Below are positions 1 through 40,751 of a DNA stretch of 40,751 nt, piece after piece. The translations under genes were made by a program, and so were the position numbers. The DNA lies in sequence record NC_002166.1; one strand, written 5' to 3'. Positions within the stretch are counted from its first letter, which is position 1; every line of letters starts with the position of its first letter. Below the pieces are notes generated by a model. The model ran no database searches, was not told the DNA's origin, and saw nothing but the letters and a program-made list of their open reading frames with translations. The DNA is from Escherichia phage HK022.

Positions 1-49
1 GTTTGAATTTAACGCTAACCCGATTTTTTTAGTTTTAAGGTGTTGACAT

Positions 50-535
50 ATGGCAGATAAACGAATCCGTTCAGACAGTTCGGCGGCAGCGGTTCAGGCC
101 ATGAAAAATGCAGCTGTGGACACCATCGATCCGCCGTCCCATGCAGGTTTGGAGAAAAAAGCCGAACCATTCTGGCATGACAATATCAGATCGAAAGCTC
201 TGGACAGCTGGACGCCTGCCGACCTTCTAGCCGCCGTAGAACTTGCTAATAATCAGCTCTATATCACCGTTTTACGCAAGGATTTACGCAAAGAAGAGCG
301 CATACGCGGGGAGGAGCGAGACGAAGGCCTTATAAAAGACCTCCGCAAGCAAATTGTTGAGCTACAACGAACTATCCTGGCTCAGCGCCGCGACCTCCAG
401 ATCCACTCCCACGCAACCAACGGCGAAAGTCGCGACCAGAAGAAACGTAATCAGAACGATCGTGATGCACGGAATACCAAAAACGAGCATCAGGACCAGG
501 ACGATAACCTGATCGCCTTTCCCAAGCACGGATAA
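50..535 (+). CDS. terminase small subunit
   Basis: 161-aa ORF directly upstream of the large terminase; charged N-terminal half and acidic C-terminal tail typical of P27-type small terminases; ATG at 50. Confidence 0.75.
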   Translation: MADKRIRSDSSAAAVQAMKNAAVDTIDPPSHAGLEKKAEPFWHDNIRSKALDSWTPADLLAAVELANNQLYITVLRKDLRKEERIRGEERDEGLIKDLRKQIVELQRTILAQRRDLQIHSHATNGESRDQKKRNQNDRDARNTKNEHQDQDDNLIAFPKHG

Positions 536-541
536 AAGACT

Positions 542-2056
542 ATGACGCGAGGTGAGCGTGTAATAGCGTTCATTGAGCGCTTTTGCATCGTGCCAGAAGG
601 CAAGCTTATCGGACAACCTATGCGGTTGGACACCTTTCAGAAAGAATTCATCCTGGCGGTTTACGACAATCCAGCCGGAACGGATATGGCGATCCTCAGC
701 ATCGCCCGAAAAAATGGTAAGACTGGCCTGATTGCCGGAATTCTGCTGGCTCACCTGGTGGGGCCTGAAGCGGTGCAGAACACGCAGATTGTCAGCGGTG
801 CACTCAGCCGGGAACAGGCGGCCATCGTTTTTAACCTCGCGGTGAAGATGGTTAACCTGAACCCCAAGCTGCAGGAGATTGTGCACATTACGCCCAGCGG
901 CAAAAAGCTGATCGGCCTGCCGTGTAACGTCGAATACAAGGCTTTATCCGCAGAAGGTAAGACGACGCACGGCCTTTCCCCCATTCTGGCCATTCTCGAT
1001 GAAACAGGGCAGGTTAGGGGCCCGCAGGATGATTTTATCGATGCAATAACTACGGCGCAGGGGGCTCATGAAAACCCGCTGCTAATCGTTATCAGTACGC
1101 AGGCAGCAAACGATGCTGACCTGCTTAGCATCTGGATTGATGATGCGGTCAAATCGAAAGATCCGCACATCGTGTGCCACGTTTATGAAGCGCCAAAAGA
1201 CGCTGATATCAGTAAACGCGAGTCATGGCTGGCTGCGAACCCGGCACTGGGAACATTCAGGTCAGAAAAAGACATGGCGCGCCAGGCTGAGAAAGCTGGC
1301 CGAATGCCAAGCTTCGAAAACACCTTCCGAAACCTCAACCTCAATCAGCGCGTGTCTACCGTATCGCCGTTTATCTCCCGCAGCGTGTGGGAGCTTTGCG
1401 GAGAGATGCCGATTAACACCCCGAGGAAGTGGTACGCGGGGCTGGATCTGTCAGCCAGGAACGACTTAACGGCGCTGGTTATCGCTGGTGAAGCAGATGA
1501 TGGTGTCTGGGATGTTTTCCCCTTCTTCTGGACACCGCAAAAGACTCTTGAAGAGCGAACCAAAACGGACCGAGCACCCTATGACGTTTGGGTGAGGGAG
1601 GGGCTGCTGCGCACCACGCCAGGAGCTTCGGTGGATTACTCATTCGTCGTTGCGGATATCGCTGAAATTATCGGTGATTTCGACCTTACCTCGATAGCTT
1701 TTGACCGCTGGCGCATTGACCAGTTCAGGAAGGATGCCGATGCCATTGGGCTGAGCCTCCCGCTGGTCGAGTTCGGCCAGGGCTTTAAGGATATGGGGCC
1801 AGCTGTAGACACGCTGGAGTCTCTGATGCTTAACGGGCGCGTGAGGCATGGCATGCACCCTGTATTAACGATGTGTGCTGTGAATGCGGTGGTGGTGAAA
1901 GATGCTGCTGGCAACCGCAAGCTCGATAAATCCAAAGCAACGGGCCGTATTGATGGCATGGTCGCAATGACAATGTCCGTTGGTGCTGCTAATGGGGAAG
2001 TTACCGAACAGGGTGGTGACTTCGACGACTTCATTTTCCGACCGCTGAGCATGTGA
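542..2056 (+). CDS. terminase large subunit
   Basis: 504-aa ORF; P-loop-like motif ARKNGKTG near N-terminus; position between small terminase and portal. Confidence 0.9.
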   Translation: MTRGERVIAFIERFCIVPEGKLIGQPMRLDTFQKEFILAVYDNPAGTDMAILSIARKNGKTGLIAGILLAHLVGPEAVQNTQIVSGALSREQAAIVFNLAVKMVNLNPKLQEIVHITPSGKKLIGLPCNVEYKALSAEGKTTHGLSPILAILDETGQVRGPQDDFIDAITTAQGAHENPLLIVISTQAANDADLLSIWIDDAVKSKDPHIVCHVYEAPKDADISKRESWLAANPALGTFRSEKDMARQAEKAGRMPSFENTFRNLNLNQRVSTVSPFISRSVWELCGEMPINTPRKWYAGLDLSARNDLTALVIAGEADDGVWDVFPFFWTPQKTLEERTKTDRAPYDVWVREGLLRTTPGASVDYSFVVADIAEIIGDFDLTSIAFDRWRIDQFRKDADAIGLSLPLVEFGQGFKDMGPAVDTLESLMLNGRVRHGMHPVLTMCAVNAVVVKDAAGNRKLDKSKATGRIDGMVAMTMSVGAANGEVTEQGGDFDDFIFRPLSM

Positions 2057-3330
2057 TGGAAGAACCTAAATACACGATTGACCTGCGAACCAATAACGGC
2101 TGGTGGGCAAGGCTGCAGTCCTGGTTTGTCGGCGGGCGTTTAGTCACCCCAAATCAGGGCTCACAGACGGGGCCTGTTTCGGCCCACGGACACCTGGGCG
2201 ATTCATCCATTAACGATGAACGGATACTGCAAATTTCGACTGTGTGGCGCTGCGTGAGCCTGATTTCAACGCTCACGGCATGCTTACCGCTTGATGTCTT
2301 CGAAACAGACCAGAATGACAACCGTAAAAAAGTGGATTTGAGCAATCCACTGGCGCGACTGCTGCGCTACTCACCGAATCAGTACATGACCGCCCAAGAA
2401 TTCAGGGAGGCCATGACGATGCAGCTCTGTTTCTACGGTAACGCATATGCACTTGTGGACCGCAACAGCGCAGGTGACGTGATCAGCCTTCTCCCGCTTC
2501 AGTCTGCCAATATGGATGTGAAGCTCGTCGGAAAAAAAGTGGTTTATCGCTATCAACGCGACAGCGAATACGCCGACTTTTCGCAGAAAGAGATTTTTCA
2601 CCTTAAAGGCTTCGGATTCACCGGGCTTGTAGGCCTGTCACCCATTGCTTTTGCCTGTAAATCGGCAGGTGTGGCAGTTGCGATGGAGGACCAGCAGCGA
2701 GATTTCTTTGCCAACGGCGCCAAGTCTCCGCAAATCCTCTCAACTGGCGAAAAAGTGCTAACTGAACAGCAGCGCTCCCAGGTCGAAGAGAATTTCAAAG
2801 AGATCGCCGGCGGCCCGGTAAAAAAACGCCTCTGGATTCTGGAAGCGGGTTTTTCTACATCGGCAATTGGCGTAACTCCGCAGGATGCCGAAATGATGGC
2901 GTCCCGAAAATTTCAGGTAAGTGAACTGGCGCGATTCTTTGGCGTACCGCCTCACCTTGTCGGCGACGTCGAGAAATCAACGAGCTGGGGATCGGGCATC
3001 GAGCAGCAGAATCTCGGCTTCCTGCAGTACACCCTGCAGCCCTATATCTCCAGGTGGGAAAACAGCATTCAGCGGTGGCTTATTCCTGCTAAGGATGTTG
3101 GCCGCATTCATGCTGAGCACAACCTCGACGGCCTGCTGAGGGGCGATTCGGCATCCCGCGCTGCCTTTATGAAGGCAATGGGAGAGGCAGGGCTACGCAC
3201 CATCAACGAGATGCGACGAACGGACAACCTCCCGCCATTGCCGGGTGGCGATGTGGCAATGCGCCAGTCGCAATACGTGCCGATCACCGATTTAGGAACC
3301 AACAAAGAGCCCCGTAATAACGGGGCTTAA
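2056..3330 (+). CDS. portal protein (HK97-type)
   Basis: 424-aa ORF following terminase; ATG at 2056 overlaps the terminase stop (TGATG); a GTG at 2053 is an alternative start. Confidence 0.85.
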   Translation: MEEPKYTIDLRTNNGWWARLQSWFVGGRLVTPNQGSQTGPVSAHGHLGDSSINDERILQISTVWRCVSLISTLTACLPLDVFETDQNDNRKKVDLSNPLARLLRYSPNQYMTAQEFREAMTMQLCFYGNAYALVDRNSAGDVISLLPLQSANMDVKLVGKKVVYRYQRDSEYADFSQKEIFHLKGFGFTGLVGLSPIAFACKSAGVAVAMEDQQRDFFANGAKSPQILSTGEKVLTEQQRSQVEENFKEIAGGPVKKRLWILEAGFSTSAIGVTPQDAEMMASRKFQVSELARFFGVPPHLVGDVEKSTSWGSGIEQQNLGFLQYTLQPYISRWENSIQRWLIPAKDVGRIHAEHNLDGLLRGDSASRAAFMKAMGEAGLRTINEMRRTDNLPPLPGGDVAMRQSQYVPITDLGTNKEPRNNGA

Positions 3331-3335
3331 TTTTT

Positions 3336-4025
3336 ATGGGGGCCGTAATGCCTGAAATCGTAAAAACGCTGTCCTTCGACGAGACAGAAATCAAATTCAC
3401 CGGTGACGGTAAACAGGGGATTTTTGAAGGCTACGCCTCTGTTTTTAATAACACCGATTCCGATGGCGACATCATTCTGCCCGGGGCGTTTAAAAACGCG
3501 CTGGCGAACCAGACCCGAAAAGTGGCGATGTTTTTTAACCACAGGACGTGGGAACTGCCGGTTGGCAAATGGGACAGCCTGGCTGAAGACGAAAAAGGCC
3601 TGTATGTGCGCGGTCAACTTACCCCAGGACACAGCGGCGCCGCTGACCTGAAAGCGGCAATGCAGCACGGTACGGTTGAAGGTATGTCGGTTGGCTTTTC
3701 CGTTTCGAAAGACGATTACACCATCATTCCAACAGGCCGCATTTTTAAGAATATCCAGGCTCTGCGCGAAATCAGCGTCTGCACTTTCCCCGCCAACGAA
3801 CAGGCTGGCATCGCAGCCATGAAAAGTGTCGATGGCATTGAAACGATTCGTGATGTGGAGAACTGGCTGAGGGATTCAGTCGGCCTCACCAAATCACAGG
3901 CAGTTGGGCTAATTGCCCGGTTTAAGTCAGCGATTCGGAGCGAGTCCGAGGGCGACGGAAACGAAGCACAAATAAACGCTCTGCTTCAGAGCATCAAATC
4001 TTTCCCTTCTAACTTAGGTAAATAA
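3336..4025 (+). CDS. prohead maturation protease (HK97 gp4-like)
   Basis: 229-aa ORF between portal and major capsid; start could be ATG 3336 or ATG 3348. Confidence 0.8.
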   Translation: MGAVMPEIVKTLSFDETEIKFTGDGKQGIFEGYASVFNNTDSDGDIILPGAFKNALANQTRKVAMFFNHRTWELPVGKWDSLAEDEKGLYVRGQLTPGHSGAADLKAAMQHGTVEGMSVGFSVSKDDYTIIPTGRIFKNIQALREISVCTFPANEQAGIAAMKSVDGIETIRDVENWLRDSVGLTKSQAVGLIARFKSAIRSESEGDGNEAQINALLQSIKSFPSNLGK

Positions 4026-4027
4026 TT

Positions 4028-5185
4028 ATGTCTGAACTCGCTCTCATTCAAAAAGCTATCGAAGAATCCCAGCAGAAAATGACCCAGCTTTTCGATGCGC
4101 AGAAAGCAGAAATCGAAAGCACAGGCCAGGTTTCCAAACAGTTGCAGTCCGACCTGATGAAAGTACAGGAAGAGCTGACCAAATCCGGCACTCGCCTCTT
4201 CGATCTGGAACAGAAACTGGCATCCGGCGCTGAGAATCCTGGTGAGAAGAAATCCTTCTCTGAACGGGCTGCTGAAGAGCTTATTAAGTCATGGGACGGT
4301 AAACAGGGCACCTTTGGCGCTAAAACGTTTAACAAGTCACTAGGCAGTGACGCTGATTCGGCTGGCTCACTGATCCAGCCTATGCAGATCCCAGGCATCA
4401 TCATGCCAGGCCTGCGCCGTCTTACCATTCGTGATCTGCTGGCTCAGGGCCGCACTTCCAGTAACGCTCTGGAATATGTGCGTGAAGAGGTGTTTACCAA
4501 TAACGCCGACGTGGTGGCAGAGAAAGCACTGAAGCCAGAATCGGATATCACCTTCAGCAAACAAACCGCGAACGTGAAGACCATCGCGCACTGGGTGCAG
4601 GCATCACGTCAGGTGATGGATGATGCGCCAATGCTTCAGTCCTACATTAACAACCGCCTCATGTACGGCCTGGCACTGAAGGAAGAGGGCCAGCTGCTGA
4701 ACGGCGACGGTACCGGGGATAACCTGGAAGGGCTGAACAAAGTGGCAACCGCCTATGACACCTCGTTGAATGCCACCGGCGACACCCGCGCTGACATTAT
4801 CGCTCACGCTATTTATCAGGTGACCGAGTCTGAGTTCAGCGCTTCCGGTATCGTCCTGAACCCGCGCGACTGGCACAACATCGCGTTGCTGAAAGACAAT
4901 GAAGGCCGCTATATCTTCGGTGGTCCTCAGGCATTCACCAGTAACATCATGTGGGGCTTGCCAGTGGTTCCGACTAAGGCGCAGGCCGCCGGCACCTTTA
5001 CCGTAGGCGGTTTCGATATGGCCTCACAGGTCTGGGATCGCATGGATGCCACCGTGGAAGTTAGCCGTGAAGACCGCGATAACTTCGTGAAAAACATGCT
5101 GACCATCCTGTGCGAAGAGCGTCTGGCGCTGGCACATTATCGCCCGACAGCAATCATCAAGGGCACCTTCTCTTCTGGCTCATGA
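4028..5185 (+). CDS. major capsid protein (HK97 fold)
   Basis: 385-aa ORF with long N-terminal coiled-coil-like delta region (residues ~1-100) followed by capsid domain; classic protease-capsid gene pair. Confidence 0.9.
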   Translation: MSELALIQKAIEESQQKMTQLFDAQKAEIESTGQVSKQLQSDLMKVQEELTKSGTRLFDLEQKLASGAENPGEKKSFSERAAEELIKSWDGKQGTFGAKTFNKSLGSDADSAGSLIQPMQIPGIIMPGLRRLTIRDLLAQGRTSSNALEYVREEVFTNNADVVAEKALKPESDITFSKQTANVKTIAHWVQASRQVMDDAPMLQSYINNRLMYGLALKEEGQLLNGDGTGDNLEGLNKVATAYDTSLNATGDTRADIIAHAIYQVTESEFSASGIVLNPRDWHNIALLKDNEGRYIFGGPQAFTSNIMWGLPVVPTKAQAAGTFTVGGFDMASQVWDRMDATVEVSREDRDNFVKNMLTILCEERLALAHYRPTAIIKGTFSSGS

Positions 5186-5192
5186 TGGAGGG

Positions 5193-5214
5193 GGCGGGGA
5201 AACCCGCCATTTTA
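5193..5214 (+). terminator. partial terminator/attenuator after the major capsid gene
   Basis: GGCGGG-gaaa-CCCGCC hairpin followed by ATTTTA. Confidence 0.4.
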
Positions 5215-5218
5215 ACGT

Positions 5219-5545
5219 ATGGCGATAGATGTTCTGGATGTAATTTCCCTCAGTCTGTTTAAGCAGCAGATTGAGTTTGAGGAAGACGACAGGGACGAGC
5301 TGATCACGCTGTACGCCCAGGCCGCTTTTGACTACTGCATGCGCTGGTGCGATGAACCAGCATGGAAGGTTGCGGCTGATATTCCTGCCGCCGTTAAGGG
5401 CGCCGTTCTGCTTGTCTTTGCTGACATGTTTGAACACCGGACGGCACAAAGCGAAGTGCAGCTTTATGAGAATGCAGCCGCCGAACGCATGATGTTCATT
5501 CATCGCAACTGGCGCGGAAAAGCCGAATCAGAGGAGGGCTCCTGA
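5219..5545 (+). CDS. head-tail connector protein (gp6-like)
   Basis: 108-aa ORF directly after capsid gene; position and size fit head-tail connector family. Confidence 0.65.
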   Translation: MAIDVLDVISLSLFKQQIEFEEDDRDELITLYAQAAFDYCMRWCDEPAWKVAADIPAAVKGAVLLVFADMFEHRTAQSEVQLYENAAAERMMFIHRNWRGKAESEEGS

Positions 5546-5781
5546 TGGAACCGGGACGATTCAGGCACCGGGTAAAAATTCTCACCTTCACGACTTCGCG
5601 CGATCCATCTGGTCAGCCGGTTGAATCGTGGACAGGTGGCAACCCGGTCCCGGCTGAGGTAAAGAGGATCAGCGGCAGAGAGCAGCTTTCAGGCGGCGCG
5701 GAAACGGCGCAGGCAACGATTCGCGTCTGGATGCGCGCAACGGAGCGAGTGGATAAAAAAGTGGGCAAAAATAGCTTATGA
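5545..5781 (+). CDS. short head-tail adaptor homolog (possibly a truncated paralog)
   Basis: 78 aa; N-terminal 70 residues align with the 110-aa adaptor at 5977..6309 (shared RHR..P..G....W.....V.AEV...S.RE pattern) but the conserved C-terminal segment is missing; ATG overlaps upstream stop. Confidence 0.5.
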   Translation: MEPGRFRHRVKILTFTTSRDPSGQPVESWTGGNPVPAEVKRISGREQLSGGAETAQATIRVWMRATERVDKKVGKNSL

Positions 5782-5975
5782 ACGAGCAACTGGTAAACGA
5801 ACTGATAGCAGTGATACGGGAACAAATCACAGCGCAGAGTGAGCAGACGGAAGCGATAAGCCGTCTGGCTGAATCAAATATGGCGCTTTGCGATGTCATT
5901 ATCCAGTCGCTGGCTGGTGAACTAGATGAAACTGCAGAGCAACAAACCTATCTGAGCGGTAAACCCAGGGGGTAA
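5778..5975 (+). CDS. hypothetical protein (65 aa, acidic, helical)
   Basis: ATG overlaps the stop of the upstream ORF (ATGA); lies between the two adaptor homologs. Confidence 0.4.
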   Translation: MNEQLVNELIAVIREQITAQSEQTEAISRLAESNMALCDVIIQSLAGELDETAEQQTYLSGKPRG

Positions 5976-5976
5976 C

Positions 5977-6309
5977 ATGCAGGCCGGGAAATTGCGCCAC
6001 AGGATTACTCTGCAGGAGCCAGTAAAAGTGCAGAACCCGACAACGGGAGCCGTAATTAATACCTGGCGAGATGTTGCGACTGTCCGGGCCGAAGTTTCAC
6101 CATTGTCAGCGCGTGAATTTATTGCTGCGCAGGCTTCTCAGGGTGAAATAACCACCCGTATTGTTATTCGCTACCGTGCCGGAGTTACCAGAAAACATCG
6201 CATCTTGTTTCGTGGTGCTGTGTATAACATCCATGGTGTTCTGCCCGATCCAAAAAGCGGACGTGAATACCTGACGCTTCCCTGTTCTGAGGGTGTTAAT
6301 GATGGCTGA
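5977..6309 (+). CDS. head-tail adaptor / head closure protein
   Basis: 110-aa ORF with GGGGGT RBS; full-length member of the head-tail joining family. Confidence 0.7.
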   Translation: MQAGKLRHRITLQEPVKVQNPTTGAVINTWRDVATVRAEVSPLSAREFIAAQASQGEITTRIVIRYRAGVTRKHRILFRGAVYNIHGVLPDPKSGREYLTLPCSEGVNDG

Positions 6310-6841
6310 TAGTGTTGAGGTAAGTCTTACCGGGCTTGAATCACTTCTTGGGAAAATGGAGGCCGTATCAGAAGTCACCCGTAATAAAGCCGGTCGGTTT
6401 GCATTGCGTAAGGCGGCAAACATTATAAGGGATCGGGCCAGAAGCAACGCGTCACGAGTTGATGATCCTCTGACTAAAGAAGCAATCCACAAAAATATCG
6501 TCGCCAGCTTCAGCAGCAAGCAATTCCGCAGGACAGGTGATCTGGCATTCCGTGTCGGGGTAATGGGCGGTGCCAGGCAGTATGCAAATACAAAGGCAAA
6601 CGTCAGAAAAGGCAGAGCGGGTAAAACATACAAAACCTCAGGAGATAAAGGCAATCCAGGAGGAGATACCTGGTACTGGCGTTTTCTTGAGTTTGGTACT
6701 GAGCACACATCAGCGCGGCCTATCCTCCGACCTGCAATGAACGGCGTAGATAATGACGTGATTAATGTTTTTTCTACGGAAATGGGAAAGGCTATTGATC
6801 GCGCTATCAGGCTGGCCATGAAGAAAGGAACCACTGCATGA
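6299..6841 (+). CDS. HK97 gp10-like neck/tail-completion protein
   Basis: 180 aa; ATG at 6299 or 6302 after GAGGGTG; start overlaps upstream stop. Confidence 0.65.
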   Translation: MMADSVEVSLTGLESLLGKMEAVSEVTRNKAGRFALRKAANIIRDRARSNASRVDDPLTKEAIHKNIVASFSSKQFRRTGDLAFRVGVMGGARQYANTKANVRKGRAGKTYKTSGDKGNPGGDTWYWRFLEFGTEHTSARPILRPAMNGVDNDVINVFSTEMGKAIDRAIRLAMKKGTTA

Positions 6842-7203
6842 TTGCCCCTATTTTTTCTGTTTGCGCGTCGAGTCCTGAAGTCACTGACTTACTCGGAAGC
6901 AATCCGGTAAGAATTTATCCTTTCGGAATTCAGGACGACAACGTGGTCTATCCCTATGTGGTCTGGCAGAACATCACCGGTTCTCCAGAGAACTACATTG
7001 CCCAGCGCCCTGACGCAGACTTTTTCACGCTGCAGGTGGATGCATATGCCGACACCGTGGATGAAGTGATTGCCGTGGCTACTGCGCTGCGGGATGCCAT
7101 TGAGCCGCACGCGCATATCACGCGCTGGGGCGGACAGGAAAGAGACCCCGAAACAAAGCGCTATCGCTACTCATTCGATGTTGACTGGATAGTCACTCGA
7201 TAA
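6838..7203 (+). CDS. tail terminator-like protein
   Basis: 121-aa ORF with ATG overlapping upstream stop; last gene before the major tail gene. Confidence 0.55.
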   Translation: MIAPIFSVCASSPEVTDLLGSNPVRIYPFGIQDDNVVYPYVVWQNITGSPENYIAQRPDADFFTLQVDAYADTVDEVIAVATALRDAIEPHAHITRWGGQERDPETKRYRYSFDVDWIVTR

Positions 7204-7216
7204 ACGTATTATTCAA

Positions 7217-7241
7217 CCACCGGCCTTGAGCCGGTTTTTTT
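7217..7241 (+). terminator. rho-independent terminator
   Basis: ACCGGC-cttga-GCCGGT hairpin followed by T7. Confidence 0.6.
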
Positions 7242-7257
7242 ATGACCGGAGATAACA

Positions 7258-7758
7258 ATGTCTGTATTGACGCAAGGTACGCAGCTCTTTGTGCTCGTAA
7301 AAGGCAAGGTGAGCGAAGTTGAATGTATCACTGCATTTTCACCCGGCAGCAATCCGGCTGACCAGATTGAAGACACCTGTCTTTCTGAACGCTTTGATCG
7401 CAGCTATAAGCGTGGTCTTCGAACGCCTGGCACAGCATCACTGACGCTTAACGCTGATCCTAAAAATACCAGCCACATCATGCTCTACAACCTGTCCATT
7501 TCGGACGACGAAGAGGATCAGGACCTGACCTTCGCGATTGGATGGTCAGACGGAACCGCATCGCCAACTGCGGCTGAAAATGGTGCATCCGGTGCAGTCG
7601 ATGGCCTGGTGCTACCTGATAGCCGCACATGGTTCGTATTCAAAGGCTATGTGTCCGACTTCCCGTTTGATTTTTCAGCAAACACGGTTGTTTCTACTTC
7701 TGCATCTATCCAGCGCTCCGGCTCTGCTGTATGGGTGCCAAAAGTCGTGACCCCATAA
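7258..7758 (+). CDS. major tail (tube) protein
   Basis: 166-aa ORF with GGAG RBS, positioned before the chaperone/tape-measure genes. Confidence 0.75.
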   Translation: MSVLTQGTQLFVLVKGKVSEVECITAFSPGSNPADQIEDTCLSERFDRSYKRGLRTPGTASLTLNADPKNTSHIMLYNLSISDDEEDQDLTFAIGWSDGTASPTAAENGASGAVDGLVLPDSRTWFVFKGYVSDFPFDFSANTVVSTSASIQRSGSAVWVPKVVTP

Positions 7759-7762
7759 AATC

Positions 7763-33047: not shown

Positions 33048-33049
33048 AG

Positions 33050-33076
33050 GCCTGCTGGTAATCGCAGGCCTTTTTA
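33050..33076 (+). terminator. rho-independent terminator
   Basis: GGCCTGC-tggtaat-GCAGGCC hairpin plus T5. Confidence 0.65.
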
Positions 33077-33094
33077 TTTGGGGGAGAGTAAATC

Positions 33095-33301: not shown

Positions 33302-33318
33302 ACTGAGGGTAAGTATCG

Positions 33319-33636
33319 ATGGACGAATCAAGAAAGCAGTTTGAAGAAAGTTGGTTGCGACGTGGAGGCGAATCATCAGACCTTATCCGTTACCCTGAAA
33401 ATCACCATGAAATTGGCAGTGGTGATATTGGTGGTCAATACGTGATGGACGATGTTCAAGGCCACTGGCAAACGTGGCAGGCATCGCGAGCAGCTATCGA
33501 GATTGAGTGTCCTGGAGAAAGAGAGCGTGAGGCATTTTCTACCGATTTCGAGGATGGGGTCACATTTGGTTATAACAACGCAATTAGTGAATGCGAAGGA
33601 CGGATTCGCGCTGCTGGAGTCAAAGTGAAGGAGTGA
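33319..33636 (+). CDS. hypothetical protein (105 aa)
   Basis: ATG with GAGGGTAAG upstream; acidic. Confidence 0.5.
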   Translation: MDESRKQFEESWLRRGGESSDLIRYPENHHEIGSGDIGGQYVMDDVQGHWQTWQASRAAIEIECPGEREREAFSTDFEDGVTFGYNNAISECEGRIRAAGVKVKE

Positions 33637-33640
33637 GTAT

Positions 33641-33895
33641 ATGCCATTTATAAAATTAACCATGCAATGCAGCATCTATCAGCCACCAAGCACAGGCGTG
33701 ATAGAAAGCACCAGAAGTGCATATGAGCCCTTGTACGTTAACTCTGACAACATCGAAACCCTATTTGAGGCCGGGATTACGATTGTAAGAATGGCAAGTG
33801 GTGAGCGGTTCGATGTTATTGAGAAACCAGAAGCTATTTTGGCGTTAATTAATCCATGTGTGCAGAAGGTGAGCAATGAGGAAACTAACGTTTGA
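33641..33895 (+). CDS. hypothetical protein (84 aa)
   Basis: AAGGAG RBS upstream of ATG 33641. Confidence 0.45.
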   Translation: MPFIKLTMQCSIYQPPSTGVIESTRSAYEPLYVNSDNIETLFEAGITIVRMASGERFDVIEKPEAILALINPCVQKVSNEETNV

Positions 33896-34316
33896 ACTAA
33901 GAAGCCCCATCCATCAGCAGAACGCCATTCAAGCCATCCAGCAAATCCTTCCAGACCCAACAAAACCAATCGTAGTAACCATTCAGGAGCGCAACCGCAG
34001 CTTAGACCAAAATCGGAAGCTTTGGGCTTGCCTTGGTGACGTCTCTCGTCAGGTTGAATGGCATGGTCGCTGGCTGGATGCAGAAAGCTGGAAGTGTGTG
34101 TTTACCGCAGCATTAAAGCAGCAGGACGTTGTTCCTAACCTTGCCGGGAATGGCTTTGTGGTAATAGGCCAGTCAACCAGCAGGATGCGTGTAAGCGAAT
34201 TTGCGGAGCTATTAGAGCTTATACAGGCATTTGGTACAGAACATGGCGTTAAGTGGTCAGACGAAGCGCGACTGGCTCTGGAGTGGAAAGCGAGATGGGG
34301 AGACAGGGCGGCATGA
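33876..34316 (+). CDS. ninB: NinB (Orf-family recombination mediator)
   Basis: 146 aa; [15 protein letters not shown] motif as in lambda NinB. Confidence 0.85.
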
Positions 34317-34495
34317 GACGACAGCGACGAAGTATCACCGACATCATCTGTGAAAACTGCAAATACCTTCCAACGAAACGCTCCAGAAATAAACGCAAGC
34401 CAATCCCAAAAGAATCTGACGTAAAAACCTTCAACTACACGGCTCACCTGTGGGATATCCGGTGGCTTAGAGAACGTGCGAGGAAAACAAGGTGA
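34313..34495 (+). CDS. ninE: NinE
   Basis: 60 aa from ATG 34313 (overlaps ninB stop): [30 protein letters not shown]..., matching lambda NinE as recalled. Confidence 0.75.
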
Positions 34496-34662
34496 TTGAC
34501 CAAAATCGAAGTTACGAACAAGAAAGCGTCGAGCGGGCTTTAACGTGCGCTAACTGCGGTCAGAAGCTGCATGTGCTGGAAGTTCACGTGTGTGAGCACT
34601 GCTGCGCAGAACTGATGAGCGATCCGAATAGCTCAATGTACGAGGAAGAAGACGATGAATGA
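34492..34662 (+). CDS. ninF: NinF
   Basis: 56 aa from GTG 34492: [38 protein letters not shown]...; under track cut-off; matches lambda NinF as recalled. Confidence 0.65.
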
Positions 34663-35380
34663 GTTAATAAATGGCAATGCCATCAAAATGACAAGCATTG
34701 AAATCGCTGAGTTGGTAGAAAGCCGCCATAGCAATGTAAAAGTATCCATAGATAGATTGGTGAAACGTGGCGTTATCAAGCCTCCTGCATTGCAGCACAC
34801 TAACATAATCAATGATTTAGGTGTTATTACCGGGAAGCGTGATTTCTACGTCTTCGAGGGCGAACAAGGTAAGCGAGACAGCATTATTGTCGTCGCTCAG
34901 TTGTCGCCGGAATTCACCGCTCGTCTTGTTGACCGTTGGCGAGAGCTTGAAGAAGCTGCGGTTAATATCCCCAAAACGCTACCAGAAGCGTTGCGCCTTG
35001 CTGCTGACCTTGCTGAGCAGAAAATGCAACTGGAAAACCAGCTCGCAATTGCCGCACCTAAAGTTGAGTTTGCCGATCGCGTTGGCGAGGCCAGCGGAAT
35101 TTTGATTGGAAACTTTGCAAAGGTTGTCGGTATTGGTCCAAACAAACTGTTTGCGTGGATGCGTGATCACAAAATCCTTATTGCTTCAGGTTCCCGGCGC
35201 AATGTGCCAATGCAGGAATATATGGATCGCGGCTATTTCACAGTGAAAGAAACAGCGGTCAACACAAATCACGGAATACAGATATCGTTCACCACAAAAA
35301 TCACCGGGCGTGGTCAACAGTGGCTGACCAGAAAGTTGCTCGATAACGGAATGCTGAAAGTAACAGGGGAGGCTGCTTAA
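34655..35380 (+). CDS. Rha-family regulatory protein / antirepressor-like (Rha N-terminal + KilA-C-like domain)
   Basis: 241 aa; ATG overlaps ninF 3' end. Confidence 0.7.
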   Translation: MNELINGNAIKMTSIEIAELVESRHSNVKVSIDRLVKRGVIKPPALQHTNIINDLGVITGKRDFYVFEGEQGKRDSIIVVAQLSPEFTARLVDRWRELEEAAVNIPKTLPEALRLAADLAEQKMQLENQLAIAAPKVEFADRVGEASGILIGNFAKVVGIGPNKLFAWMRDHKILIASGSRRNVPMQEYMDRGYFTVKETAVNTNHGIQISFTTKITGRGQQWLTRKLLDNGMLKVTGEAA

Positions 35381-35670
35381 TGGCTAACCTACGCAAAGAA
35401 GCGCGCGGCAGAGAATGCCAGGTACGTATTTACGGCGTATGCAATGGTAATCCTGAAACTACAGTTCTGGCACATTACCGGATGGCTGGAATTTGCGGAA
35501 CGGGAATGAAGCCTGAAGACCTGATCGGTGCATGGGCTTGTAGTGACTGCCACGCGGAGATCGACCGACGCACCCATAATCTCGACAACAAAGACGCCAG
35601 ACTTTACCACCTCGAAGGCGTGATCAGGACGCAGGCGATACTGCTGAAGGAGGGGAAGATTAAGCCATGA
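35380..35670 (+). CDS. DUF1364-family zinc-binding protein (YbcO-like)
   Basis: 96 aa; Cys/His-rich (C..C...C..C.DCH); ATG overlaps upstream stop. Confidence 0.55.
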   Translation: MANLRKEARGRECQVRIYGVCNGNPETTVLAHYRMAGICGTGMKPEDLIGAWACSDCHAEIDRRTHNLDNKDARLYHLEGVIRTQAILLKEGKIKP

Positions 35671-36029
35671 ACGAATATCAGTTTGTGCTTCCATACCCGC
35701 CGTCGCTGAACACCTACTGGCGAAGAAGGGGAAGCCAATACTACATCAGCGATAAAGGCCAGAAATACCGAAAAGACGTTCAGCAAATCATCCGCCAACT
35801 CAAGTTAGACATTTTCACCAAATCACGACTCCGCATCAAAGTAATCGCAGACGTTCCAGACTCCCGCCGCCGCGACCTCGATAACATCCTGAAAGGTTTA
35901 CTCGACTCCCTTATCCACGCCGGATTTGCGGAAGACGACGAGCAATTCGATGACATTCGCGTAATTCGTGGTGTGAAAGTACCAGGCGGACGGCTTGGAA
36001 TAAAAATCACAGAACTGGAGAGCGTATGA
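35667..36029 (+). CDS. rusA: Holliday junction resolvase RusA
   Basis: 120 aa; N-terminal LPYPPSLNTYWR signature; catalytic Asp-rich region. Confidence 0.9.
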   Translation: MNEYQFVLPYPPSLNTYWRRRGSQYYISDKGQKYRKDVQQIIRQLKLDIFTKSRLRIKVIADVPDSRRRDLDNILKGLLDSLIHAGFAEDDEQFDDIRVIRGVKVPGGRLGIKITELESV

Positions 36030-36214
36030 ACGCCACAATTCAAACGATACCAGAACTGCTTATCCAGACACGAGGCAATCAGACCGAAGTGGCGAGGATG
36101 CTTTCCTGCGCAAGAGGAACAGTGCTCAAGTACAACCGAGACAGCAAAGGCGAGCGTCACGTAATAGTTAACGGCGTCCTGATGGTCAAACAGGGCAAGA
36201 GGGGAAGACCATGA
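36026..36214 (+). CDS. ninH: NinH-like small DNA-binding protein
   Basis: 62 aa; GNQTEVARML.C.RGTV motif as in lambda NinH. Confidence 0.7.
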   Translation: MNATIQTIPELLIQTRGNQTEVARMLSCARGTVLKYNRDSKGERHVIVNGVLMVKQGKRGRP

Positions 36215-36834
36215 GACTCGAAAGCGTAGCTAAATTTCACTCGCCAAAAAGCCCGATGATGAGCGACTCACCACGGACCACGGCTTCTGACTCTCTTTCC
36301 GGTACTGATGTGATGGCTGCTATGGGGATGGCGCAATCACAAGCCGGATTCGGAATGGCTGCATTCTGCGGTAAGCATGAACTCAGCCAGAACGACAAAC
36401 AAAAGGCTATCAACTATCTGATGCAATTTGCACACAAGGTATCGGGGAAATACCGTGGTGTGGCAAAGCTTGAAGGAAATACTAAGGCAAAGGTACTGCA
36501 AGTTCTCGCAACATTCGCTTATGCGGATTATTGCCGTAGTGCCGCGACACCGGGCGCAAGATGCAGAGATTGCCACGGTACTGGCCGGGCCGTTGATATT
36601 GCCAAAACAGAGCAGTGGGGGAGAGTTGTCGAGAAAGAGTGCGGAAGATGCAAAGGCGTCGGCTATTCCAGGATGCCAGCAAGCGCCGCATATCGCGCTG
36701 TAACGATGCTAATCCCAAACCTTACCCAACCCACCTGGTCACGCACTGTTAAGCCGCTGTATGACGCTCTGGTGGTGCAATGCCACAAGGAAGAGTCAAT
36801 CGCAGACAACATTTTGAATGCGGTCGCACGTTAG
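36211..36834 (+). CDS. Q: late gene antiterminator Q
   Basis: 207 aa; begins MRLESVAKFHSPKSPMMSDSPR... with Cys4 zinc motif (C..C...C..C); matches lambda Q almost residue for residue as recalled. Confidence 0.9.
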   Translation: MRLESVAKFHSPKSPMMSDSPRTTASDSLSGTDVMAAMGMAQSQAGFGMAAFCGKHELSQNDKQKAINYLMQFAHKVSGKYRGVAKLEGNTKAKVLQVLATFAYADYCRSAATPGARCRDCHGTGRAVDIAKTEQWGRVVEKECGRCKGVGYSRMPASAAYRAVTMLIPNLTQPTWSRTVKPLYDALVVQCHKEESIADNILNAVAR

Positions 36835-36876
36835 CAGCATGATTGCCACGGATGGCAACATATTAACGGCATGATA

Positions 36877-36905
36877 TTGACTTTTTGAATAAAGTTGGGT
36901 AAATT
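36877..36905 (+). promoter_or_regulatory. late promoter pR' (with qut region downstream)
   Basis: TTGACT (-35), 17-nt spacer, TAAATT (-10), same arrangement as lambda pR' as recalled. Confidence 0.6.
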
Positions 36906-36940
36906 TGACCCAACGATGGATAAATGCACTCGTTAAATAA

Positions 36941-36970
36941 AGCCCTGAGTTAATAGCTCTGGGCTTTTTG
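36941..36970 (+). terminator. candidate pR'-proximal terminator
   Basis: AGCCCTGAG / CTCTGGGCT imperfect hairpin followed by T5. Confidence 0.45.
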
Positions 36971-37266
36971 CGTTTTAAGCACGGCCTTTCTGAAAGCACA
37001 TCAAACCAAATACCAGACAGACAATACCCTCACCTTATCCGCTGTGGCTACGGTGCGGTGTGCTTTGTATAAAAGAAAACCAGCTCAATGTCTGGCTTCG
37101 TGAAAGCGGGTGGCAGGAGGTTGCGCTAACAACCTCATGCCGTTTTGCCCGTGCATATCGGTCACGAACAAATCTGATTACTAAACACAGTAACCTGGAT
37201 TTGTTCTATCAGTAATCGACCTTATTCCTAATTAAATAGAGCAAATCCCCTTATTGGGGGTAAGAC

Positions 37267-37590
37267 ATGAAGATGCCAGAAAAAAATGACCTGTTAGCCG
37301 CCATTCTCGCGGCAAAGGAACAAGGCATCGGGGCAATCCTTGCGTTTGCAATGGCGTACCTTCGCGGCAGATATAATGGCGGTGCGTTTACAAAAACAGT
37401 AATCGACGCAACGATGTGCGCCATTATCGCCTGGTTCATTCGTGACCTTCTCGGCTTCGCCGGACTAAGTAGCAATCTCGCTTATATAACGAGCGTGTTT
37501 ATCGGCTACATCGGTACTGACTCGATTGGTTCGCTTATCAAACGCTTCGCTGCTAAAAAAGCCGGAGTAGAAGATGGTGGAAATCAATAA
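37267..37590 (+). CDS. S: holin S (class I, dual-start motif MKM)
   Basis: 107 aa; Met1-Lys2-Met3 dual start; three TM segments; matches lambda S as recalled. Confidence 0.9.
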
Positions 37591-38050
37591 TCAACGTAAG
37601 GCGTTCCTCGATATGCTGGCATGGTCAGAGGGAACTGATAACGGACGTCAGAAAACCAGAAATCATGGTTATGACGTCATTGTAGGCGGAGAGCTATTCA
37701 CTGATTACTCCGATCACCCTCGCAAACTTGTCACGCTAAACCCCAAACTCAAATCAACAGCCGCCGGACGCTACCAGCTTCTTTCCCGTTGGTGGGATGC
37801 CTATCGTAAGCAGCTTGGCCTGAAAGATTTCTCTCCGAAAAGCCAGGACGCTGTGGCATTGCAGCAGATTAAAGAGCGTGGCGCTTTACCGATGATTGAT
37901 CGCGGTGATATTCGTCAGGCAATCGACCGTTGCAGCAATATCTGGGCTTCACTGCCGGGGGCTGGTTATGGTCAGTTCGAGCATAAGGCTGACAAACTGA
38001 TTGCAAAATTCAAAGAAGCTGGCGGAACGGTCAGAGAGATTGAGGTATGA
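37574..38050 (+). CDS. R: endolysin R (lytic transglycosylase)
   Basis: 158 aa; start overlaps S; matches lambda R as recalled ([24 protein letters not shown]...). Confidence 0.9.
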
Positions 38051-38484
38051 GCAGAGTAACCGCGATTATCTCCGCTCTGGTTATCTGCATCATCGTCTGC
38101 CTGTCATGGGCTGTTAATCATTACCGTGATAATGCAATCGCCTACAAAGAACAGCGCGACAAAGCCGCATCCACTATTGCTGACATGCAGAAGCGTCAAC
38201 GTGATGTAGCAGAACTCGATGCCAGATATACAAAGGAGCTTGCTGATGCTAACGCGACTATCGAAAGTCTCCGTGCTGATGTTTCTGCTGGGCGTAAGCG
38301 CCTGCAAGTCGCCGCCACCTGTGCAAAGTCAACGACCGGAGCCAGCGGCATGGGCGATGGAGAAAGCCCAGGACTTACAGCAGATGCTGAACTCAATTAT
38401 TACCGTCTCCGAAGTGGAATCGACAGGATAACCGCGCAGGTTAACTACCTGCAGGAATACATCAGGACGCAATGCCTGAAATAA
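38047..38484 (+). CDS. Rz: i-spanin Rz
   Basis: 145 aa; N-terminal TM anchor ([16 protein letters not shown]) and coiled-coil periplasmic domain. Confidence 0.85.
38246..38431 (+). CDS. Rz1: o-spanin Rz1 (lipoprotein embedded in Rz, +1 frame)
   Basis: 61 aa from ATG 38246; lipobox LLGVSAC; Pro-rich mature part; entirely inside Rz; start codon choice uncertain. Confidence 0.65.
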
Positions 38485-38516
38485 TTTTTTTTGCAAATCA
38501 CAAAGTCAATTTAATG

Positions 38517-38540
38517 AGCCTCGCGATGCGGGGCTTTTTT
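38517..38540 (+). terminator. candidate terminator after lysis cassette
   Basis: AGCCTCGC-gat-GCGGGGCT hairpin (one G-U pair) followed by T6. Confidence 0.45.
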
Positions 38541-38690
38541 ACATCTGCAGTAAACGCGCATTCTCGTGCGCATATCAACCAAGAGCTTTTCGGGATATGA
38601 GACAGAGACAGGACGGTGGCTTACATCGTGCCGCTCTTGGGCTGTCCATGTCTGCGAGAACTGGCTCATATCACCAAAAAGGTAAATACG

Positions 38691-39419
38691 ATGTCCAATA
38701 TCATCCCGATTGATTTCGAAGGCCATCCCATGCGTTTTTCTGACGATGGCTGGTTTGACGCGACTGCGGCAGCTGACAAGTTCAACAAGGAGCCGGCTCA
38801 GTGGCTTAGGCTTCCTGAGACTGTCCGTTACATCGAGGCGTTAAAGAGTAGATATGGGAATATCACATATGTAAAAACCAGCCGCGCTCGCAAAGACCGT
38901 GGCGGCGGAACATGGCTTCACCCAAAACTGGCGGTCAGATTTGCTCGATGGCTTTCTGTAGATTTTGAGATCTGGTGTGATGAGCAAATTGACGCAATCA
39001 TTCAGGGTTCCGTTCATCATATCGACGATGAAAGAATAAAGGCTATTTTCCTTCTGGATAAATCTCAGCCATGGGAAAAGAGGTTTAGCGATCCGTTTTA
39101 TTCTGCGATGTTCAAAATGTCAGGGCTGCCCCGTCATCGACCAGGTCGTCGCCCCGCACTATTTGGGATGATCAGTGCCAAGTGGGTATATGGCCCGGTA
39201 TTACCACCAGAAGTATATGCAGAGGTTAAAAGACGGCTGGCTGCAGGAGACAAAATCCATCAGCACCTTAAACCTGACGCGCTGACATTGGTTGAGCGAC
39301 AGATCATTGCCGTTACCAGCATTGCCAATGGGTGCTCTGATTATCGTGATTTCGAAGCGCGTTGCATGTCGGCATTCCCGGTGAAAGGGCAGATGAAATT
39401 GCTCTATGCGGCGGCCTGA
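38691..39419 (+). CDS. KilA-N domain protein
   Basis: 242 aa from ATG 38691; N-terminal KilA-N-like segment (IPIDFEGHPMRFSDDGWFDATAAADKF...WLHPKLAVRFARWLS). Confidence 0.55.
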   Translation: MSNIIPIDFEGHPMRFSDDGWFDATAAADKFNKEPAQWLRLPETVRYIEALKSRYGNITYVKTSRARKDRGGGTWLHPKLAVRFARWLSVDFEIWCDEQIDAIIQGSVHHIDDERIKAIFLLDKSQPWEKRFSDPFYSAMFKMSGLPRHRPGRRPALFGMISAKWVYGPVLPPEVYAEVKRRLAAGDKIHQHLKPDALTLVERQIIAVTSIANGCSDYRDFEARCMSAFPVKGQMKLLYAAA

Positions 39420-39421
39420 TC

Positions 39422-39679
39422 ATGAGCACCCGAATAATAGAATGCGCCTCCAGAGCGGGGCGCGACTTCTCTGAGTTTCTGAAAGGTGAGAAAGACATGA
39501 TGCAGGCATTGTCATCTGTTGATCAGTTTGGCGAGCAACTCCGTATTAACGGTTGCGTCAACCATCACTTTGTCAGCTACATGATGCGTAATGCGGTCAT
39601 GCAGGCATTCATGGACATGGCAAAAGCCGTGAGGAAAGAAGAGCGCCGGCGTAAGCGAGCCGAAGAAAAAGCGAAGTAA
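39422..39679 (+). CDS. hypothetical protein (85 aa)
   Basis: ATG 39422 2 nt after upstream stop; basic C-terminal tail. Confidence 0.4.
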   Translation: MSTRIIECASRAGRDFSEFLKGEKDMMQALSSVDQFGEQLRINGCVNHHFVSYMMRNAVMQAFMDMAKAVRKEERRRKRAEEKAK

Positions 39680-40071
39680 CCATTACAAAGCTCATCTGCG
39701 GGTGGGCTTGATAATGAAACCGGAGTTAATTTCTGGTCACTAATTAACGGCAGCACCGCGAAACAACCCAAGCCAGAAAGTGGGGAAATAACACTGGCAG
39801 CCACTGAAAGATAAACCTCCTGCCTTATGGCAAAAAAGATTCTTTGTGGTGGCGGACTGATGGAAAGACATCGGTTATTGCAGAGGCCATTCAATGAGTG
39901 GTCTCGACAATGGCTTATACCCTACACGGGATAACTTAACTGATATCCCTTTTAACGGATAAACGGAGCCAACAATGGCAGAGATTATTCTCATGACTGA
40001 AGAACAGAAATTCCAGTTAGAGATTTACAAACTGGTCATGAACCAGAACGCCGCCGTGCATGGAGACTGGC

Positions 40072-40413
40072 ATGAACAAAGAGCCCCGCGTATATGGCAG
40101 CCGATGGGATAAGGCCCGTCTGCGTTTTCTCCAGCAGCACCCACTGTGTGTGATGTGCGAGCAGCAGGGGCGCATAACACCAGCAACGGTGGTCGACCAT
40201 ATCGTGCCCCACAAACTGAAAGATGCGCTTAAGTCAGGTAACCCTCTGGCCATATCGAAAGCACAGCTCCTGTTCTGGAGTAAAGAGAACTGGCAGCCAC
40301 TGTGCAAAGCGCATCATGACTCAACGAAACAGAGAATGGAGAAGAGCGGCGCGGTAATCGGTTGTGATGCCAACGGCTACCCGCTCGATCCTGCGTCTCA
40401 CTGGAGCACGTAA
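40072..40413 (+). CDS. HNH endonuclease (terminase-associated)
   Basis: 113 aa from ATG 40072 (GGAG 6 nt upstream); Cys/His motifs (C..C...DHIVPH...C..HH); sits immediately before the terminase genes on the circular map. Confidence 0.8.
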   Translation: MNKEPRVYGSRWDKARLRFLQQHPLCVMCEQQGRITPATVVDHIVPHKLKDALKSGNPLAISKAQLLFWSKENWQPLCKAHHDSTKQRMEKSGAVIGCDANGYPLDPASHWST

Positions 40414-40616
40414 TGAAAGACCTCATCATTGAATACCGAGACGGTAAGTTTGTTCAGCTGGCGATTGATGGCGTGGAGATGAAGCGCGTAACGTCTATCC
40501 ACTTCTCCCACACCGTAGGCGAGGACGTACCGACATTGACCGTCTCAGGACATGTGTGGTCCGAGTATGGGAAAGGCGATCACAAACTCGAACAGGTAGA
40601 CAAACATTCGGCATAG
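40413..40616 (+). CDS. hypothetical protein (67 aa)
   Basis: ATG overlaps the HNH stop; no recognisable motif. Confidence 0.4.
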   Translation: MKDLIIEYRDGKFVQLAIDGVEMKRVTSIHFSHTVGEDVPTLTVSGHVWSEYGKGDHKLEQVDKHSA

Positions 40617-40751
40617 CGCGGCGGCGGCAAGTCGATTATCTATCATGTGAAATCATTTCAAATGCAACGATATCAAATGAGAATGAATCGCATTCAGGGC
40701 GGGGGGGGGATCAAATCTTCAAAACCTTTGCCCTAAATGACCGCCGCCAAA

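Follow-up and report, generated by a model that had tools for sequence, protein, structure and literature searches.

The 40,751-nucleotide (nt) stretch of DNA analysed here (the window, record NC_002166.1 at its full length) is, with virtual certainty, the complete genome, from cos to cos, of HK022 (Shamshuipovirus HK022), a temperate lambdoid coliphage, and almost certainly the reference sequence itself. An initial annotation, made from the letters of the sequence, had taken the window for a whole mosaic lambdoid genome, probably HK022 or a very close relative, on account of its length and of its Nun, put and Cor features. Every test available supported HK022, and low identity to that phage was not seen in any of them. 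Juhala and colleagues reportedly described the HK022 reference genome in 2000, and we take its accessions to be GenBank AF069308 and RefSeq NC_002166. HK022 has been listed under NC_002166 with 40,751 base pairs (bp) and 57 genes (PMC2266997); the window has exactly this published length, and its Nun, put and Cor do not differ from those of HK022. This is the correct identification of a published genome, already known, and not a discovery. As the initial annotation had supposed, the striking systems encoded here (Nun exclusion, put antitermination, the HK97-type capsid, Cor and torS-torT integration) have been published, with both genetics and structures. The present analysis adds firm element coordinates, corrected module labels and the recognition of a pair of open reading frames (ORFs) downstream of J as the most promising uncharacterised piece.

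1-40751, no strand: complete linear cos-to-cos genome of Escherichia phage HK022, from its length, the HK97 ends and a lysogen

That the window spans a whole genome, as first proposed, is confirmed at its ends. Its termini align with those of the HK97 record (1 with 1 and 40751 with 39732), and in a sequenced HK022 lysogen (GCA_949549225.1) the sequence runs on contiguously from 40751 to 1. Because the HK97 record has the same ends and base 40751 directly precedes base 1 in the lysogen, we place the window ends at cos. No host DNA or host genes were found within the window. The lysogen was compared over three loci, covering window 4137-18815, 18872-20650, 20640-33350 and 26211-40751 joined to 1-6083; these are 100.000% identical to the window, so that 40,695 of its 40,751 bases are covered with zero mismatches. 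In lysogen contig CATHYL010000002.1, a cat (chloramphenicol acetyltransferase) cassette at 14680-15557 of the fetched locus replaces the 56 bp of window 18816-18871 inside cor, and for this reason GCA_949549225.1 appears to be an engineered lysogen from a laboratory.

By exact-sequence look-ups, PDB comparison and the coding sequences annotated in record X16093, 17 window proteins were found to be residue-for-residue identical to HK022-labelled entries. J (NP_037684.1, AAF30375.1, Q9MCU0_BPHK0) and the replication protein O (AAF30383.1) each form a 90% cluster that contains this sequence alone. Exact matches were also obtained for Int (VINT_BPHK0, AAF30377.1), Cor (AAF30376.1, named 'phage exclusion lipoprotein Cor'), Cro (RCRO_BPHK0), Q (REGQ_BPHK0, NP_037694.1), the tail tube protein (AAF30364.1, Q9MCU9_BPHK0, 'Major tail subunit'), the tape measure protein (NP_037676.1), the side tail fibre (A0A2I6PID3_BPHK0), helicase P (AAF30384.1), an Ea22-like protein (AAF30379.1) and a 114-residue early protein (AUM59808.1). 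The major capsid protein matches AAF30357.1 exactly and is also that of HK97 gp5 (CAPSD_BPHK7), while the window sequences of kil, cIII and cI are identical to the coding sequences annotated in X16093. That record, deposited in 1989 as 'HK022 nun gene and immunity region' (3,500 bp), corresponds without gaps to window 26123-29622 at 99.94% identity. The sole difference, GC in the window against CG in the record at 26999-27000, lies inside an IS903 element and looks like an old gel-reading error.

The immunity region holds the following elements. Several of them are also annotated in O276, a lambda-HK022 hybrid.

27725-28063, minus strand: nun, transcription termination factor excluding lambda, a 112-codon ORF whose 109-residue form starts at 28054
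28239-28312, minus strand: putL antiterminator RNA, with +1 at 28312 and the -10 and -35 elements of pL at 28319-28324 and 28342-28347
28422-29129, minus strand: cI repressor, 235 residues, helix-turn-helix and S24 peptidase; its 90% cluster contains RPC1_BPHK0, and it is identical to the X16093 region
29209-29439, plus strand: cro, 76 residues, exact match to RCRO_BPHK0
29464-29520, plus strand: putR antiterminator RNA, about 270-280 nt downstream of pR, annotated in O276 as 'HK022 putR'

From nun to cro the window is 100% identical to X16093, in which nun is itself annotated. The 109-residue form of Nun (27725-28054, minus strand) agrees at 109 of 109 residues with chain N of PDB entry 6ALG, 'Transcription termination factor nun', and at 26 of 26 with the peptide 1HJI_B. 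Downstream of pL and putL, the gene lies where lambda has N, and its own promoter lies at 28090-28118, the equivalent of an O276 annotation. No homologue of N was found in the window by tblastn against lambda, HK97 and P22 or with Pfam. For putL, all 23 residues named in a cryo-EM study (PMC9378689) agree when +1 is set at 28312, and any other offset gives at most 7 of 23; a -10-like AACCAU at +23 to +28 agrees with the same study, whose primers for polymerase chain reaction amplification of pL-putL match exactly at 28338-28357 (minus strand) and 28214-28232 (plus strand). In O276, putL is annotated at the equivalent of 28241-28303. The distance between putR and pR is likewise as described in PMC9378689, and putL and putR have two blocks in common, CGAACGGC and AGGATGA..CAATG.TGC. 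The operators OL (about 28320-28410) and OR (about 29120-29200) flank cI according to X16093 and the O276 annotation, and a consensus scan places pR at 29150-29177.

In published work, put RNA binds the beta-prime zinc-binding domain of RNA polymerase and gives early antitermination without N protein (PMC9378689). In the window, cI and cro would control pL and pR, and the early transcripts are predicted to become termination-resistant through cis-acting putL and putR RNAs that bind RNA polymerase, not through N protein. Nun made by the prophage would bind lambda nut RNA and arrest lambda transcription, by which lambda would be excluded.

The distribution of nun extends beyond HK022. The gene with its upstream region (window 27708-28183) occurs at 95-97% nt identity in mEpX1 and mEp235, directly beside an annotated N gene, and because nun adjoins N in these two phages, Nun is, judged from gene neighbourhood, not restricted to put-using phages. 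Kapi1 has it too, at 95% nt identity, between genes that carry no annotation beyond hypothetical. Of the 556 members in the 90% cluster of Nun, most of those listed bear only the name 'transcriptional regulator'.

The integration module comprises attP, int and xis.

20640-20650, no strand: attP core CTTTAGGTGAA, 11 bases also present in the K-12 spacer between torS and torT; flanked by P and P' arms of lambda type (about 20449-20770)
20724-21797, minus strand: int, 75% amino-acid identity to lambda Int
21775-21993, minus strand: xis, 98% amino-acid identity to lambda Xis

HK022 integrates between torS and torT (PMC6814406). In the window attP reads ATCCTTTAGGTGAATAAGTTG and the empty K-12 site reads GCACTTTAGGTGAAAAAGGTT, with CTTTAGGTGAA as the common core. 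The prophage in the lysogen ends at window 20650 beside torT and starts at 20640 beside torS, with hybrid attL and attR sites seen at the borders. HK022 Int and an att core common to attB between torS and torT are thus both present. Int matches lambda Int structures at E 1e-177, and the att arms together with int-xis are 76% identical in nt sequence to lambda 27534-29126. As a lambda Int homologue, Int would recombine the attP core with attB between torS and torT. A short AT-rich stretch, 20651-20724, lies between attP and the end of int and faces torS in the lysogen. The only torS transcription start site in lysogens has been located within the prophage, with a change in torCAD regulation (PMC6814406).

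Other origins of the window were weighed against this evidence. Many relatives have long stretches in common with it at 94-99% identity, the HK022 immunity region together with IS903 is found at 99.7% in O276, and nun and put at 95.9% in HK75, all of which would suit a natural phage very closely related to HK022, or a laboratory hybrid with HK022 modules (for example mEpX2, mEp235, HK140 or an O276-like imm-HK022 hybrid). However, when the window was searched by megablast in two parts (1-25000 and 25001-40751) against a phage collection without a full HK022 record, no record covered more than 74% of either part among hundreds of lambdoid relatives, of which mEpX2, HK140, mEp235, mEp506 and HK97 were the best. 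The lack of a near-full-length match reflects the absence of the HK022 record from the collection, not novelty. In mEpX2 an N gene is present and the immunity region is not that of the window; O276 encodes lambda Bet, Gam, O and P, in contrast to the Erf and DnaB-type helicase of the window; the single-member clusters of J and O hold the HK022 proteins; and the length agrees with HK022 to the base, at 40,751. Because their immunity or backbone modules differ, mEpX2, O276 and similar phages were rejected as the source, and we consider an origin of this kind very unlikely. Even less probable, to the point of being negligible, is that the window was cut out of a bacterial assembly as a prophage segment, or that several lambdoid phages were joined in an assembly chimera. 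Such an origin would account for the strong mosaicism (HK97 alignments cover 59% of the window, those to lambda and to P22 about 10-12% each) and for a bacterial insertion sequence (IS) element within it, but the window ends at cos and not at att, contains no host genes, and carries an IS903 copy that was already in the 1989 record. The independently sequenced lysogen shows the same arrangement, circularly permuted at att, contiguous across cos and with zero mismatches; an intact, internal attP at 20640-20650 and this co-linear lysogen led us to reject a prophage fragment or chimera.

Some points weigh against the assignment to HK022 and its published systems. Identity with HK022 is indirect, established through proteins, X16093, the lysogen, put and att and not by a base-by-base alignment to NC_002166, and only the exact match of the Cor protein confirms the 56 bases of 18816-18871. 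Minimum free energy folding of putL (z -0.14) and putR (z +0.17) was no better than that of shuffled controls, and Rfam holds no put family; because of both, the put assignment rests on identity to published sequences. Finally, the mechanistic statements made here come from the literature on HK022, HK97 and lambda.

The vegetative lambdoid gene order proposed in the initial annotation was verified with Pfam and PHROGs families and through tblastn comparison with the annotated genomes of lambda, HK97 and P22. From the left end, the window encodes terminase, an HK97-type head, connectors, tail, cor, side fibre, attP, int-xis, the early-left genes, IS903, nun and putL, followed by cI, cro, putR, cII, O, P, the nin region, Q, S-R-Rz, KilA-N and HNH genes, and cos.

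5545-20130: connectors and tail
up to 26426, minus strand: early-left genes
27725-29520: nun to putR

Mosaicism was evident as nt-level alignments to three different phages, with 24,222 window bases aligned to HK97 (59%), 4,779 to lambda (12%, or 11.7%) and 4,116 to P22 (10%). Segments common to the window and lambda, HK97 and P22 are 76-99% identical in nt sequence. A lambda-like module order with interchangeable homologous segments, of which the annotated hybrid O276 is an example, places the phage among the lambdoids. No tRNA was found in the window, and an Rfam scan of it at gathering thresholds gave no matches. Chi sites are not enriched (2 found, 1.4 expected). No known defence system was called when ten proteins, small or of unknown function, were scanned with PADLOC; the only two matches, both marginal, were a homing-endonuclease model for an HNH_3 ORF and PDC-S22 for the KilA-N protein.

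The left end comprises the terminase and head genes, and the right end a set of small genes adjoining cos.

50-535, plus strand: terminase small subunit, 100% amino-acid identity to HK97 gp1
542-2056, plus strand: terminase large subunit, 99% amino-acid identity to HK97 gp2
2056-5545, plus strand: HK97-type head module
2056-3330, plus strand: portal
3348-4025, plus strand: S78 maturation protease
4028-5185, plus strand: major capsid protein
5219-5545, plus strand: head-tail adaptor gp6
5545-5781, plus strand: 78-residue remnant of HK97 gene 7 (head closure), 97% amino-acid identity to HK97 gp7 residues 1-64 only, Pfam Phage_HCP
5778-7203, plus strand: head-tail joining genes, comprising a 65-residue ORF, a Phage_HCP gene (5977-6309), an HK97-gp10-like gene (6299-6841) and a tail completion gene (6838-7203)
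38691-39419, plus strand: KilA-N/P63C gene, first of the right-end genes (38691-40616)
39422-39679, plus strand: 85-residue ORF
39975-40112, plus strand: DUF2560 gene
40072-40413, plus strand: HNH endonuclease, homologue of HK97 gp74
40413-40616, plus strand: 67-residue ORF

The head had been described as HK97-type, and this is borne out: bases 1-5736 are 98.5% identical to HK97 in nt sequence, and the capsid protein is identical. At the protein level, identity to HK97 is 100% for the capsid protein (gp5), 99% for the protease and 98% for the portal, with Pfam families Phage_capsid, Peptidase_S78 and Phage_portal; the terminase subunits match Hendrixvirinae_terminase_S, TerL_ATPase and TerL_nuclease. 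An HK97-fold capsid protein, an S78 protease and a portal are encoded with no separate scaffold or decoration gene, the arrangement of a Hendrixvirinae head. HK97 similarity stops at nt 5736, inside gene 7, which marks a mosaic junction. The gene 7 remnant is followed by the 65-residue ORF and then by a second, complete Phage_HCP head-closure gene at 5977-6309. The joining genes of 5778-7203 belong to Pfam PF05521, PF04883 and PF11367, with 27-29% amino-acid identity to HK97 gp7 and gp10 and no match in lambda. The right-end genes are 99% identical at the amino-acid level to their HK97 counterparts by tblastn, with Pfam and PHROGs families assigned. By analogy with HK97, the terminase would cut at cos, aided by the HNH endonuclease encoded at the right end, and DNA would enter an HK97-fold capsid built with portal, S78 protease and capsid protein.

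Beyond the junction, the tail genes run to the side tail fibre.

7258-7758, plus strand: major tail tube protein, 166 residues, Pfam Phage_TTP_11; no tblastn match to lambda V or HK97 gp12
7797-8458, plus strand: tail assembly chaperone pair, Pfam Phage_TAC_13, with a G-like ORF at 7797-8282 and the -1 frame open at 8123-8458
8478-13630, plus strand: distal tail genes
8478-10898, plus strand: H, tape measure
10898-11236, plus strand: M
11233-11988, plus strand: L
11990-12700, plus strand: K
12748-12972, plus strand: YebO-like moron
13022-13630, plus strand: I
14137-17688, plus strand: J, central tail fibre or tip protein, 1183 residues, 98% amino-acid identity to HK97 J residues 1-1145
17690-17992, plus strand: first ORF between J and cor, 100 residues, phrog_557
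17992-18630, plus strand: second ORF between J and cor, 212 residues, phrog_425
18738-18971, plus strand: cor, lipoprotein, superinfection exclusion of FhuA-dependent phages, exact match to AAF30376.1
19030-20130, plus strand: side tail fibre, 366 residues, C-terminal S74 intramolecular chaperone domain (Pfam Peptidase_S74)

The tail had been called lambda-type, which holds for its organisation, its G/GT frameshift signal and its distal genes H, M, L, K, I and J, and fails for the connector and shaft genes of 5778-8458. The distal genes stand in lambda order, with 25-33% amino-acid identity to lambda and 49-100% to HK97 by tblastn, and match Pfam families Tape_meas_lam_C, Phage_min_tail, Phage_tail_L, Lambda_tail_I and Phage_Tail_Tip. 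No ORF in 5778-8458 gave a tblastn match to lambda at E<1e-3, whether to Z, U, V, G, T or any other gene; the Pfam families found there are Phage_TTP_11, Phage_TAC_13 and Tail_completion_gp17. Within the chaperone overlap, GGGAAAG at 8129-8135 is the only in-frame X XXY YYZ heptamer and is the lambda slippery heptamer, from which we infer a programmed -1 frameshift that would yield a G/GT-like fusion. The signal is kept even though tblastn revealed no similarity of the chaperone proteins to lambda G or T. Overall, the phage would have a long non-contractile tail in which the tube and chaperone set is unlike lambda in sequence and lambda-homologous distal genes are retained. The YebO-like ORF between K and I (74 residues, PF13974) looks like a typical moron and has a 99% identical counterpart in the HK97 RefSeq record, in a stretch without annotation. 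The side tail fibre is 79% identical at the amino-acid level to the N-terminal part of HK97 Stf.

J itself is 33% identical to lambda J over residues 9-861, and its PDB relatives include lambda J (8IYK). HK97 J is longer, with 1296 residues against 1183 in HK022, and identity ends at residue 1145. Downstream of J, the 212-residue protein has a phage T1 counterpart with 50% identity, and it recurs in ES18 as well as in many other siphovirus records. Neither it nor the 100-residue ORF gave a meaningful relative when searched by sequence against the PDB. Published models describe a 'bona fide RBP locus downstream of gpJ' (PMC8594841), RBP standing for receptor-binding protein, and a receptor-binding locus of an immunoglobulin (Ig)-like and a hand-like protein (PMC12309495). 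The position of the two ORFs fits both, and because of this fit they are a plausible candidate for an FhuA-binding module. We tentatively suggest, as a possibility a little short of even, that J may lack its own receptor-binding domain, with the two ORFs as the candidate FhuA-binding tip and cor as the adjoining, matching exclusion gene. If true, the receptor-binding locus model, put forward for Drexlerviridae and Dhillonvirus phages, would come to cover a classical lambdoid phage too, one that is temperate and genetically tractable. On the published biology of HK022 or its near relatives, adsorption would be through FhuA, after which Cor would block FhuA-dependent superinfection. The initial annotation had left only the small morons and unknown early genes as uncharacterised; to that extent its view is modified, as recent literature now gives the J-downstream pair a plausible role, whereas the remainder of the window has been described before.

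Between integration and immunity lie the early-left genes and IS903.

22098-24582, minus strand: early-left genes of unknown function, encoding proteins of 114, 59, 94, 121 (DUF551), 121, 235 (Ea22-like) and 54 (DUF2737) residues
24593-26426, minus strand: recombination and early regulation
24593-24886, minus strand: abc2
24910-25293, minus strand: SSB-like gene, phrog_44
25293-25898, minus strand: erf
25909-26079, minus strand: 56-residue ORF, phrog_1723 'recombinase'
26155-26307, minus strand: kil
26292-26426, minus strand: cIII
26601-27657, minus strand: IS903B, 1057 bp, transposase at 26657-27625, 99.7% identity to annotated IS903B-family elements

Within 22098-24582, Pfam identified DUF551 and Ead_Ea22, and the PHROGs matches are all of 'unknown function'. 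The recombination genes include Erf, which is P22-type as first described, with 74% amino-acid identity to P22, 98% to HK97 and a Pfam ERF match at E 3e-44; Abc2 is 92% identical to P22 Abc2. The genes kil and cIII are annotated in X16093. IS903B, which was not mentioned in the initial annotation, is bounded by 9-bp target duplications TTGGAATGA at 26592-26600 and 27658-27666, has 18-bp terminal inverted repeats GGCTTTGTTGAATAAATC and encodes a DDE_Tnp_1 transposase, consistent in each respect with IS903 (IS5 family). The element interrupts a hairpin, GTGTATTCA...TGAATACAC, just downstream of nun; the hairpin is intact in lambda (33923-34064) and in HK97. The IS903 copy is present in X16093, O276 and the lysogen.

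The early-right and late regulatory genes follow putR.

29561-29857, plus strand: cII
29890-30036, plus strand: 48-residue ORF
30029-30928, plus strand: O initiator
30918-32354, plus strand: DnaB-type helicase P
32436-36214, plus strand: nin region, with ninB, ninE, ninF and ninH in addition to the genes below
32436-33047, plus strand: HNH_3/AP2 endonuclease-like gene
33095-33895, plus strand: three small ORFs of unknown function
34655-35380, plus strand: roi
35380-35670, plus strand: YbcO-like gene
35667-36029, plus strand: rusA
36211-36834, plus strand: Q late-gene antiterminator, lambda type, 99% amino-acid identity to lambda Q
37267-37590, plus strand: holin S, first gene of the lysis cassette
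37574-38050, plus strand: endolysin R
38047-38484, plus strand: spanin Rz

The cII protein is 99% identical to that of HK97, and O matches phrog_345, 'replication initiation O-like'. The helicase had been called P22-type: its class stands, since it belongs to the DnaB family (Pfam DnaB, DnaB_C and AAA_25) and is not a lambda P, but amino-acid identity is only 31% to P22 gp12 and falls within 31-32% for P22 gp12 and HK97 P together. Going by these alignments, it is of the same class as P22 gp12 but a distant allele. Replication would employ the O-like initiator with this phage DnaB-type helicase. The HNH_3/AP2 homing-endonuclease-like ORF (203 residues) lies between the helicase gene and the nin region and has no counterpart in lambda, HK97 or P22. 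The late regulatory and lysis genes bear out their description as lambda-type Q-S-R, with amino-acid identities to lambda of 99% for Q, 97% for S and 98% for R. Q and the region just downstream are 96% identical in nt sequence to lambda 43875-44609. Rz is HK97/P22-like, with 59% identity to lambda, 97% to HK97 and 90% to P22 gp15. By analogy with lambda, Q would antiterminate the late genes and S, R and Rz would lyse the cell.

Compared with known phages, the window agrees with the HK022 reference in every feature that could be compared, namely length, 17 proteins, the immunity region, putL, the attP core, the integration site and IS903, with only the GC/CG swap setting it apart from the partial record X16093. 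HK97 (Byrnievirus HK97) resembles it in terminase and head (98.5%), most of J (95%), the erf to cIII segment (95%), cII and the segment from ninE through lysis to cos (97%), and shares its cos ends as well as the HNH and KilA-N genes near the right end. In contrast, HK97 has N protein and nut sites where HK022 has Nun and put, and differs in cI and cro, in its lambda att core, in the tail-shaft genes and the tape-measure N-terminus, and in the O and P alleles (P 32% amino-acid identity); cor, the J-cor ORF pair and IS903 are absent from it. The Shamshuipovirus members mEpX2, mEp235 and HK140 have late regions 97-99% identical to the window over 66-74% of bases 1-25000, including the HK022-type tail shaft, the J-downstream ORFs and cor, and mEpX2 and mEp235 also have part of the early-right region (window 25001-40751) in common with it. 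The three differ from HK022 in integrases and immunity regions, with mEpX2 encoding N and a different cI and cro.

With lambda, HK022 has in common the gene order, the att arm architecture, ninB, ninE, ninF, the GGGAAAG signal and the sequence around the IS903 target. Unlike lambda, it has an HK97-type head without lambda B, C, Nu3, D and E, lacks N, nut sites, rex and Red (exo/bet/gam), with Erf instead, has a DnaB-type helicase in place of lambda P, and uses FhuA as receptor against LamB in lambda. O276, the lambda imm-HK022 hybrid, carries IS903, nun, putL, cI, cro, putR and cII at 99.7%, explicitly annotated and including pL and pR, whereas its backbone is that of lambda (Bet, Gam, lambda O and P, Ren) and its cI bears a temperature-sensitive mutation. 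HK75, a 36.7-kb phage that is different elsewhere, has the corresponding region, with nun and put, at 95.9%.

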